Shown here: positions 2,450-2,818 of the stretch, in pieces | Layout of the letters: the number at the start of each line of letters is the position of its first letter | How positions within the stretch are numbered: position 1 is the first letter of the stretch | NCBI RefSeq assembly: GCF_003334385.1 | Contig: NZ_QOWN01000005.1 | Direction: 5' to 3' (one strand) | DNA from: Escherichia coli | Lineage (GTDB): Bacteria > Pseudomonadota > Gammaproteobacteria > Enterobacterales > Enterobacteriaceae | Length of the DNA: 64,000 nucleotides | Notes under the pieces: generated by a model | Seen by the model: the letters and a program-made list of their open reading frames with translations, nothing else | What the model was told of the DNA's origin: nothing | Databases searched by the model: none | Position numbers and translations under genes: made by a program

Positions 2450-2818
2450 TTTATTTATATTGCGAATATAAATATTTTCTGAAAATCATATCTCATCTCT
2501 TTCCTTAATTACGATTTTAGTTTAAACATCTCTTTGCGGAAATAATATAACTTCCTATAAATAAATATCAATCCCATCTCCATACCCTAACCAATTGCAC
2601 TTGTGAACTTATTTTTACTTAATTTTGAATTAAGTAAATTTAATTTGTTCAAAAGCTTCTAAAGTGCACAATAGGCGACCTAATGAACAATGGTTGTAAA
2701 TTTGGGTAACAAATATCATTGCTCATTAATATCTAACATTTGTTTCTCCTATTTGTGTCATGAATAGTCATTCTTCAAACATGTAGTCTGACTAATGGAA
2801 TTTTATTAAAGGATTTTT

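Follow-up and report, generated by a model that had tools for sequence, protein, structure and literature searches.

The stretch of Escherichia coli DNA considered here (64,000 nucleotides, called the window below; all positions are counted from its first letter) carries the genes pcnB and folK followed by the yad chaperone-usher fimbrial operon, and the subject of this report is the 369-bp intergenic region between folK and yadN (2450-2818, from open reading frames and the RefSeq annotation), together with an inverted repeat, or dyad, that lies in it at 2614-2638. A 471-bp query taken round this interval gives a 100% match to E. coli K-12 genomes; relative to the reference genome the window is reverse-complemented, and a genome coordinate equals 159702 minus the window position. 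The RefSeq gene order at the matching stretch is pcnB, folK, yadN, yadV (ecpD) and htrE, in agreement with the open reading frames at 555-1973, 1970-2449 (folK), 2819-3403 (yadN), 3501-4241 and 4276-6873. Homologues of YadN carry the Pfam domain Fimbrial (PF00419). Yad fimbriae are found in about 70% of E. coli and have a role in bladder, bloodstream and plant or abiotic surface colonisation (PMC13245861). The features on which the argument turns are these:

2450-2818, no strand assigned: intergenic region of folK and yadN, AT-rich, bound by H-NS and regulatory for the yad operon (composition, annotation and literature)
2594-2794, + strand: K-12 equivalent of the CFT073 Pyad-lux fragment (205 bp), with H-NS-repressed, serum-responsive promoter activity (primer mapping and reporter literature)
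2614-2638, no strand assigned: main dyad, TTTACTTAATT-TTG-AATTAAGTAAA, with perfect 11-bp arms and a 3-nt spacer (inverted-repeat search, shuffles and conservation)
2819-3403, + strand: yadN, which heads yadN-yadV(ecpD)-htrE-yadMLKC and encodes the major subunit of Yad fimbriae (open reading frames and annotation)

The G+C content of the interval is 0.266 (73.4% A+T), against a mean of 0.510 (standard deviation 0.050) for 369-bp windows across the 64 kb; it is the lowest-GC stretch of its length there, and the 0.02% of 369-bp windows that are equally low all overlap it. It stands at the edge of the low-GC yad island, which averages 0.417 against 0.523 for the rest of the window, with the yad genes at 0.40-0.45 and pcnB, panB and panC at 0.53-0.56. 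TpA steps occur 11.1 times per 100 bp in the interval and 4.6 times in the window as a whole (2.4-fold), and there are eight runs of at least four A or T. A first-pass annotation, which had judged the region by eye to be about 70% A+T with multiple A/T tracts, is thus borne out by the computed values (26.6% G+C in the interval, 51% in the window). The only other stretch of the window in which the 369-bp G+C falls below 0.33 (minimum 0.314) lies at about 37500-38010; by coordinate conversion it is the aroP-pdhR intergenic region, also listed among the 'promoter islands' described below.

That same annotation had read the region as an H-NS-silenced promoter or regulatory region, and published experiments support this. 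Table 1 of PMC3661553 includes the region as entry 156927_379, yadN(-)/folK(-), among 78 'promoter islands' of MG1655 (stretches of at least 300 bp with unusually dense predicted start points), and by coordinate conversion this entry maps onto the interval; the paper assigns it to a GIST genomic island and marks it 'A', for H-NS binding in every chromatin immunoprecipitation on chip (ChIP-chip) data set considered. A 2026 study of extraintestinal pathogenic E. coli (PMC13245861) reports H-NS binding at yad in CFT073 by ChIP-seq, and a lux reporter driven by roughly 200 bp of sequence 5' of yadN, which is barely active in the wild type and rises more than 100-fold in an hns mutant, an effect complemented in trans. 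In that mutant all the yad genes go up by quantitative reverse-transcription PCR, and YadN protein and surface fimbriae appear. Serum, through a heat-stable cue, lifts Pyad activity further even without H-NS, and a serum-responsive H-NS antagonist is postulated for yad. The same paper cites Larsonneur et al. 2016 for effects of temperature, oxygen and ArcA on yad. PMC5797941, in which the yadN transcript is 2.4-fold up on SlyA overproduction, cites Korea et al. 2010 for repression of yad by H-NS in K-12.

We placed the reporter fragment in a CFT073-type allele from the primers in S3 Table of PMC13245861 and then carried it over to the present sequence by alignment. It contains the whole dyad, with 20 nt of sequence ahead of it on the 5' side, and ends 24 nt short of the yadN ATG. 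The active, H-NS-repressed promoter must thus lie at or downstream of the dyad, since the active fragment begins only 20 nt 5' of it. For the same reason the word 'leader', which the first-pass annotation had applied to all 369 bp, is not justified, most of the interval probably being upstream of the promoter. A Cappable-seq table, in the part covered here (genome + strand), lists no start site at 156.8-157.3 kb.

Two features that can accompany H-NS binding find no support in the computed results. The 10-11-bp periodicity of AA/TT, a crude proxy for curvature, is not above shuffles in the interval, so that phasing of the A-tracts is unsupported, and the high-affinity H-NS consensus TCGATAAATT (also quoted in PMC3661553) finds in the region a best match with 2 mismatches, no better than in shuffles (P = 0.81). 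Neither the high-affinity motif nor curvature is obligatory for H-NS binding. That the interval is an H-NS-silenced promoter region seems to us very likely, and the fuller statement, that it serves the chaperone-usher yad operon as control and promoter region under silencing by H-NS, is also likely. H-NS polymerises on the 73% A+T DNA and silences a weak sigma-70-type promoter within the promoter-proximal 200 bp (window about 2594-2794); expression follows the loss of H-NS or its antagonism, as with SlyA overproduction or serum cues, and published experiments show all of this. None of this silencing is new, since it was already known for this promoter and the finding itself adds nothing, and in this respect the region is ordinary for an H-NS-silenced fimbrial operon.

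Of more interest is the dyad. The first-pass annotation had located an 8-bp-arm palindrome, TACTTAAT-TTTGA-ATTAAGTA, at 2616-2636; it is exactly there, its extent being understated, as it is nested in the perfect 11-bp-arm repeat at 2614-2638. In 5000 dinucleotide-preserving shuffles of the 369 bp (loops of 0-9 nt), a perfect arm of at least 8 bp arose in 18% and one of at least 11 bp in 0.5% (0.3% in a second run), so that the 8-bp version is at chance level and the full dyad is beyond it. The sequence is rich in TpA steps and in AATT/TTAA motifs. The only other exact occurrence of its outer frame, TTTAC-N15-GTAAA, in the window lies inside htrE at 4463-4487, has a non-palindromic interior and is probably due to chance.

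The region can be compared across divergent alleles. The 471-bp query gives at least a partial match in 4769 of 5426 complete E. coli genomes, with most of its length aligned in only 2988; in the remaining genomes the alignment is confined to the final 85-90 bp running up to and into yadN, since this intergenic region falls into allele classes that have diverged deeply. We aligned 16 sequences, the window and 15 others (K-12-, B1-, EC958- and CFT073-type, two other types, and E. fergusonii); a YadN scan of species-representative genomes yielded a single E. coli locus, and more distant loci were obtained instead through YadN protein homologues and their contigs. Intergenic identity between the classes is only 49-62%, E. 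fergusonii being no farther from the E. coli classes than these are from each other. The divergence extends into the 3' end of folK, and suggests ancient yad allele classes maintained as a long-lived polymorphism or spread by transfer of the yad locus between lineages. In E. coli ES9 (2551-4145 of the locus taken from that strain) IS5 stands directly after folK and the yad operon is deleted, a 228-bp remnant of yadC remaining before panB.

Against this background the arms of the dyad stand out. Conservation, taken as a column score in 12-nt windows over nine divergent alleles, averages 0.56 in the intergenic region; it is 0.81 at the left arm (2611-2622) and 0.75 at the right (2630-2641), compared with 0.55 for the spacer and 0.24-0.35 for the flank at 2640-2659. 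The half-sites have a core CT(T)AA within TTTTACT...AGTAAAA, and the distance from the dyad to the ATG is 176-186 bp, in the same frame, in all the E. coli allele classes and in E. fergusonii. The TTTAC-N15-GTAAA frame is common to the K-12-type and CFT073-type alleles. In the latter the same place is occupied by TTAATTTTACTAA-N9-TTAGTAAAATTAA, with perfect 13-bp arms, which a single substitution converts into 16-bp arms in one allele (each P <= 0.002). The commonest allele, the B1-type (1800 genomes at 95% identity to a K-12 60-mer), carries a substitution at one matching position of each arm (A to G and T to A), so that these two bases no longer pair although CTTAA is intact, and EC958-type alleles have a 10-bp deletion, one helical turn, between the dyad and the conserved blocks downstream. 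This conservation of the dyad arms across divergent alleles, as read from the alignment, is new here.

Several other blocks in and around the interval are conserved or otherwise distinctive, among them two that could supply the core promoter:

2452-2474, no strand assigned: second perfect dyad, TATTTATATT-GCG-AATATAAATA, with 10-bp arms, directly after the folK stop codon (P of an arm of at least 10 bp = 0.018)
2463-2486, no strand assigned: (C/T)GAATATAAATAwwTTCyGAAAAT, the most conserved block apart from the ribosome-binding region (conservation 0.95 and 0.81)
2667-2672, + strand: candidate -10 hexamer CACAAT, in the conserved block (A/G)TGCACAAT (prediction only, and conservation)
2683-2709, + strand: eight-codon mini-ORF (open reading frame) MNNGCKFG-stop, overlapping the CpxR-like repeat and the extended -10 (read from the alignment)
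2695-2703, + strand: candidate extended -10, TGT followed by AAATTT (prediction only, and invariant columns)
2696-2710, + strand: direct repeat GTAAA-N5-GTAAC, resembling a CpxR box and overlapping the candidate extended -10 (1 mismatch to GTAAA-N5-GTAAA)
2722-2733, + strand: conserved block CTCATTAATATC, TCATTAAC in other alleles (conservation 0.82)
2795-2818, + strand: yadN ribosome-binding region ATGGAAT...AAGGA, with the Shine-Dalgarno sequence AAGGA at 2809-2813, 5 nt before the ATG (conservation 0.87-0.95)

Both -10-like elements are conserved in all the allele classes and fall within the reporter fragment. The TGCACAAT block (2663-2674) has a conservation of 0.76, and its hexamer conforms to yAnA(A/T)T in 16 of 16 alleles, the second base always being A and the sixth T. 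The second, in a stretch (2679-2709) conserved at 0.71-0.74, is invariant at T-G-T and, within the hexamer, at A in position 2 and T in position 6; in other alleles the hexamer reads TACATT, AATACT or TATACT, that of K-12 (AAATTT) being the weakest. If these predictions hold, the centre of the dyad would be near -53 or -83. In 15 of 16 alleles the CpxR-like repeat has no more than 2 mismatches; it is no more frequent than chance predicts (the window has 5 matches, 3.8 being expected, and shuffles of the region give P = 0.15), and a literature search gave no report linking CpxR to yadN. The mini-ORF keeps its start, the Asn at codon 3, the Cys at codon 5 and its stop in frame in most alleles, its other residues varying. 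Extended -10, CpxR-like repeat and mini-ORF are alternative readings of the same conserved nucleotides (2683-2710). The interval also has open reading frames of 21-29 codons, which we take to have arisen by chance in AT-rich DNA.

The block GAATATAAATA...TTCyGAAAAT at 2463-2486, in which GAATATAAAT is invariant in the 16 sequences, is more conserved than the dyad. The palindromes it takes part in differ by allele: in K-12 it pairs with upstream sequence, and in the CFT073-type it reads GAATATA-AA-TATATTC. A minus-strand match to the Lrp consensus at 2467-2481 (2 mismatches) is no better than shuffles. As for the second dyad, only its right arm is conserved in other alleles, and its predicted RNA fold is weak (-5.2 kcal/mol, z = -0.78).

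In composition the yad promoter resembles those of the other cryptic K-12 chaperone-usher operons (sfm, elf/ycb, yeh, ybg, yfc and yra; Korea et al. 2010), which are likewise AT-rich upstream of the major subunit gene (G+C 0.24-0.39 in the six fetched from MG1655: sfmA, ybgD, elfA, yehD, yfcV and yraH), and which are H-NS-bound promoter islands, silent in the laboratory and derepressed without H-NS. The yad region differs from these six in having a long conserved dyad, and it has no linked regulator gene. The promoter-island work of Panyukov, Ozoline and colleagues (PMC3661553), which lists the yad region as a member, does not discuss the dyad. Between yehE and yehD of MG1655, 228 bp before the yehD ATG, there is a perfect 36-bp palindrome, AAAGCCGAAATCATTTAT followed directly by ATAAATGATTTCGGCTTT (18-bp arms, no spacer).

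With the pap- and fim-type switches the yad region shares its place as a fimbrial control region, inverted repeats and the influence of H-NS. A Dam/Lrp phase switch of the pap type needs two GATC sites within Lrp sites, and 2450-2818 contains none. An invertible switch of the fim type, which needs inverted repeats on either side of a promoter segment of about 300 bp and tyrosine recombinase genes alongside, is rejected as well: the arms of the dyad do not flank an invertible segment, since they are only 3 nt apart, the longest separated inverted repeat in the interval is 27 nt with 70% complementarity, and the neighbouring genes are only folK and yadN, with no recombinase genes. Yad is reported not to be phase-variable (PMC13245861). 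The response of yadN to SlyA overproduction is like the antagonism of H-NS by SlyA or LeuO in other systems, while the dyad, with TTA-N9-TAA, is unlike the SlyA pattern TTA-N6-TAA.

A candidate for the protein that might bind the dyad was sought by scanning 19 transcription-factor consensus sequences against the region and its shuffles (Fur, CpxR, ArcA, two forms of SlyA, CRP, FNR, IHF, Lrp, PhoP, RcsAB, the H-NS high-affinity site, OmpR, TyrR, ArgR, NagC, MarA, Fis and LexA). The best match to a TyrR box overlaps the left arm only and is not significant (P = 0.10). A Fur box, which would explain serum induction via iron limitation, is rejected at 7 of 19 mismatches (P = 0.85), and so is an ArcA box (GTTAATTAAATGTTA), whose best match has 4 mismatches, lies in the 3' end of folK and has P = 0.78; the accessible part of the ArcA ChIP-seq supplements of PMC3798270 does not mention yadN, folK, yadV or ecpD. 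The SlyA operator (TTAGCAAGCTAA or TTA-N6-TAA) does not fit the spacing of the dyad, and the best match to its 12-mer, at 2455-2466, has 3 mismatches (P = 0.43) and is not conserved.

What, then, does the dyad do? We tentatively take it for a specific protein-binding site, the operator of a dimeric DNA-binding protein, though we would put this at somewhat below an even chance. A dimeric regulator would sit on the inverted half-sites, with the candidate core promoter elements roughly 40-85 bp downstream, and might from that position oppose H-NS, strengthen its effect or make contact with RNA polymerase. Conserved arms at a fixed position make such a role more plausible, and we infer a candidate site. 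A good deal weighs against it. None of the 19 consensuses beats shuffles, and no best match among them has the dyad at its centre; ACTNA-N7-11-TNAGT, TTTAC-N13-17-GTAAA and CTTAA-N5-11-TTAAG are all absent from the promoters of the six other cryptic fimbrial operons, which thus give no sign of a shared operator; and the dyad is absent from the orthologous AT-rich intergenic regions (G+C 0.21-0.33) of E. albertii, Pseudocitrobacter and Salmonella. In the EC958-type alleles and E. fergusonii it is reduced to a core of 5-6 bp (ACTTAA...TTAAGT and TTAAA...TTTAA; P = 0.5-0.8). Its position relative to the promoter is predicted from the -10 elements. A consensus scan finds no good sigma-70 site on the + strand of the interval, and neither the fraction of paired positions nor covariation in 11 distinct alleles exceeds that in column shuffles, because the dyad columns are almost all A or T. 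Much of this would fit a dyad with no specific function, an A/T palindrome of a kind that arises easily and is perfected by template-switch (quasipalindrome) mutation, its conservation reflecting general constraint on an H-NS-bound tract or shared ancestry. The ease with which shuffles yield 8-bp arms, the range of arm length between alleles (5 to 16 bp), the degenerate forms, the broken pair of the commonest allele, the lack of any known consensus that fits, and the unrelated palindromes elsewhere in the orthologous regions (10-bp arms in Salmonella, P = 0.06; 8-bp arms in Pseudocitrobacter) are all as that explanation would have it. We nonetheless think it rather unlikely: both arms are among the most conserved windows in spite of the 49-62% identity of the classes, the spacer and 3' flank are not, the outer frame and the spacing to the ATG are held constant, and arms of 11, 13 and 16 bp occur at one site in two independent allele classes, each with P <= 0.003.

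The dyad might instead act as RNA, as a sense-strand hairpin in a long 5' leader from a promoter near the TATAAA at 2467-2472, or as a weak terminator or attenuator for read-through from pcnB-folK. A 16-pair helix on it has 79% of the cells of the alignment paired on the sense strand (with G-U) and 72% on the antisense strand, in a register that is specific (27-53% in slid versions), and its pairs 28-50 and 29-49 are U-A or U-G in 11 of 11 sequences; a U-rich run comes after the K-12 hairpin (-8.5 kcal/mol, z = -3.5), the conserved block with TATAAA is located upstream of it, and the CFT073-type fold is the most stable of all (-13.6, z = -5.1). That stability is not kept, falling to -4.8 (z = -1.2) in the EC958-type and -2.7 (z = -0.15) in E. 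fergusonii, and in the B1-type both bases of a central pair have changed, so that it no longer forms. The stem, with a single G-C pair, does not pass a terminator scan, which finds no terminator-like site anywhere in the interval (a U-rich tail occurs only in K-12-type alleles), and Rfam has no match in 2450-2818 either at the gathering threshold or at E-values up to 1. From the start of the reporter fragment, moreover, the promoter is at or downstream of the dyad, which would then be untranscribed from it. A protein site on DNA is favoured over an RNA structure, since the half-site sequence is kept, the pairing strength is not, and the dyad is upstream of the promoter activity; we regard the hairpin as very improbable. 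Only slightly less doubtful is that, instead of being a dedicated operator, the dyad nucleates high-affinity binding of H-NS or of another nucleoid protein (StpA, Fis or IHF, for example), or tends to form a cruciform. The entire region is H-NS-bound, the dyad is rich in TpA and in AATT/TTAA, and it stands at the 5' end of a fragment that retains full H-NS repression; yet TCGATAAATT is unmatched at the dyad, its best regional match being elsewhere, none of the six other H-NS-silenced fimbrial promoters has a comparable element, and specific C and G positions are conserved amid the A and T, which suggests base-specific reading. If the dyad is a regulator's operator, its placement inside the 205-bp serum-responsive fragment, with a helical phase to the promoter that the 10-bp indel preserves, could make it the operator of the serum-sensing regulator postulated by Ellison et al. 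(2026), one that raises yad even in an hns mutant; this more specific identification, too, we consider unlikely.

Elsewhere in the window, the yadN-yadV intergenic region (3404-3500), right after the major subunit gene, contains a 13-bp stem, CAGGGAATAATAA...TTATTATTCCCTG, at 3436-3473, followed by TTTT. It looks like an attenuator or terminator hairpin setting fimbrial subunit stoichiometry; the 106-nt region folds at -25.2 kcal/mol (z = -2.7), and two sub-threshold Rfam matches there are spurious. Unrelated to yad, Rfam matches at the gathering threshold occur at 36580-36693, 47181-47374, 47778-47847 and 53494-53583, to the small RNA tp2, two copies of naRNA4, STnc40 and PssrA.

From its sequence and place, then, the dyad is a real, positionally conserved footprint within an experimentally defined promoter fragment, and a plausible site for a regulator. 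What the comparison could usefully offer is a small set of phylogenetic footprints, standing out where substitutions have elsewhere come close to saturation: the arms of the dyad, the GAATATAAATA block, TGCACAAT and the TGT-nAnnnT / GTAAn-N5-GTAAa block. They are targets for mutagenesis in tracking down the regulator, postulated in the 2026 study, by which serum would overcome H-NS.

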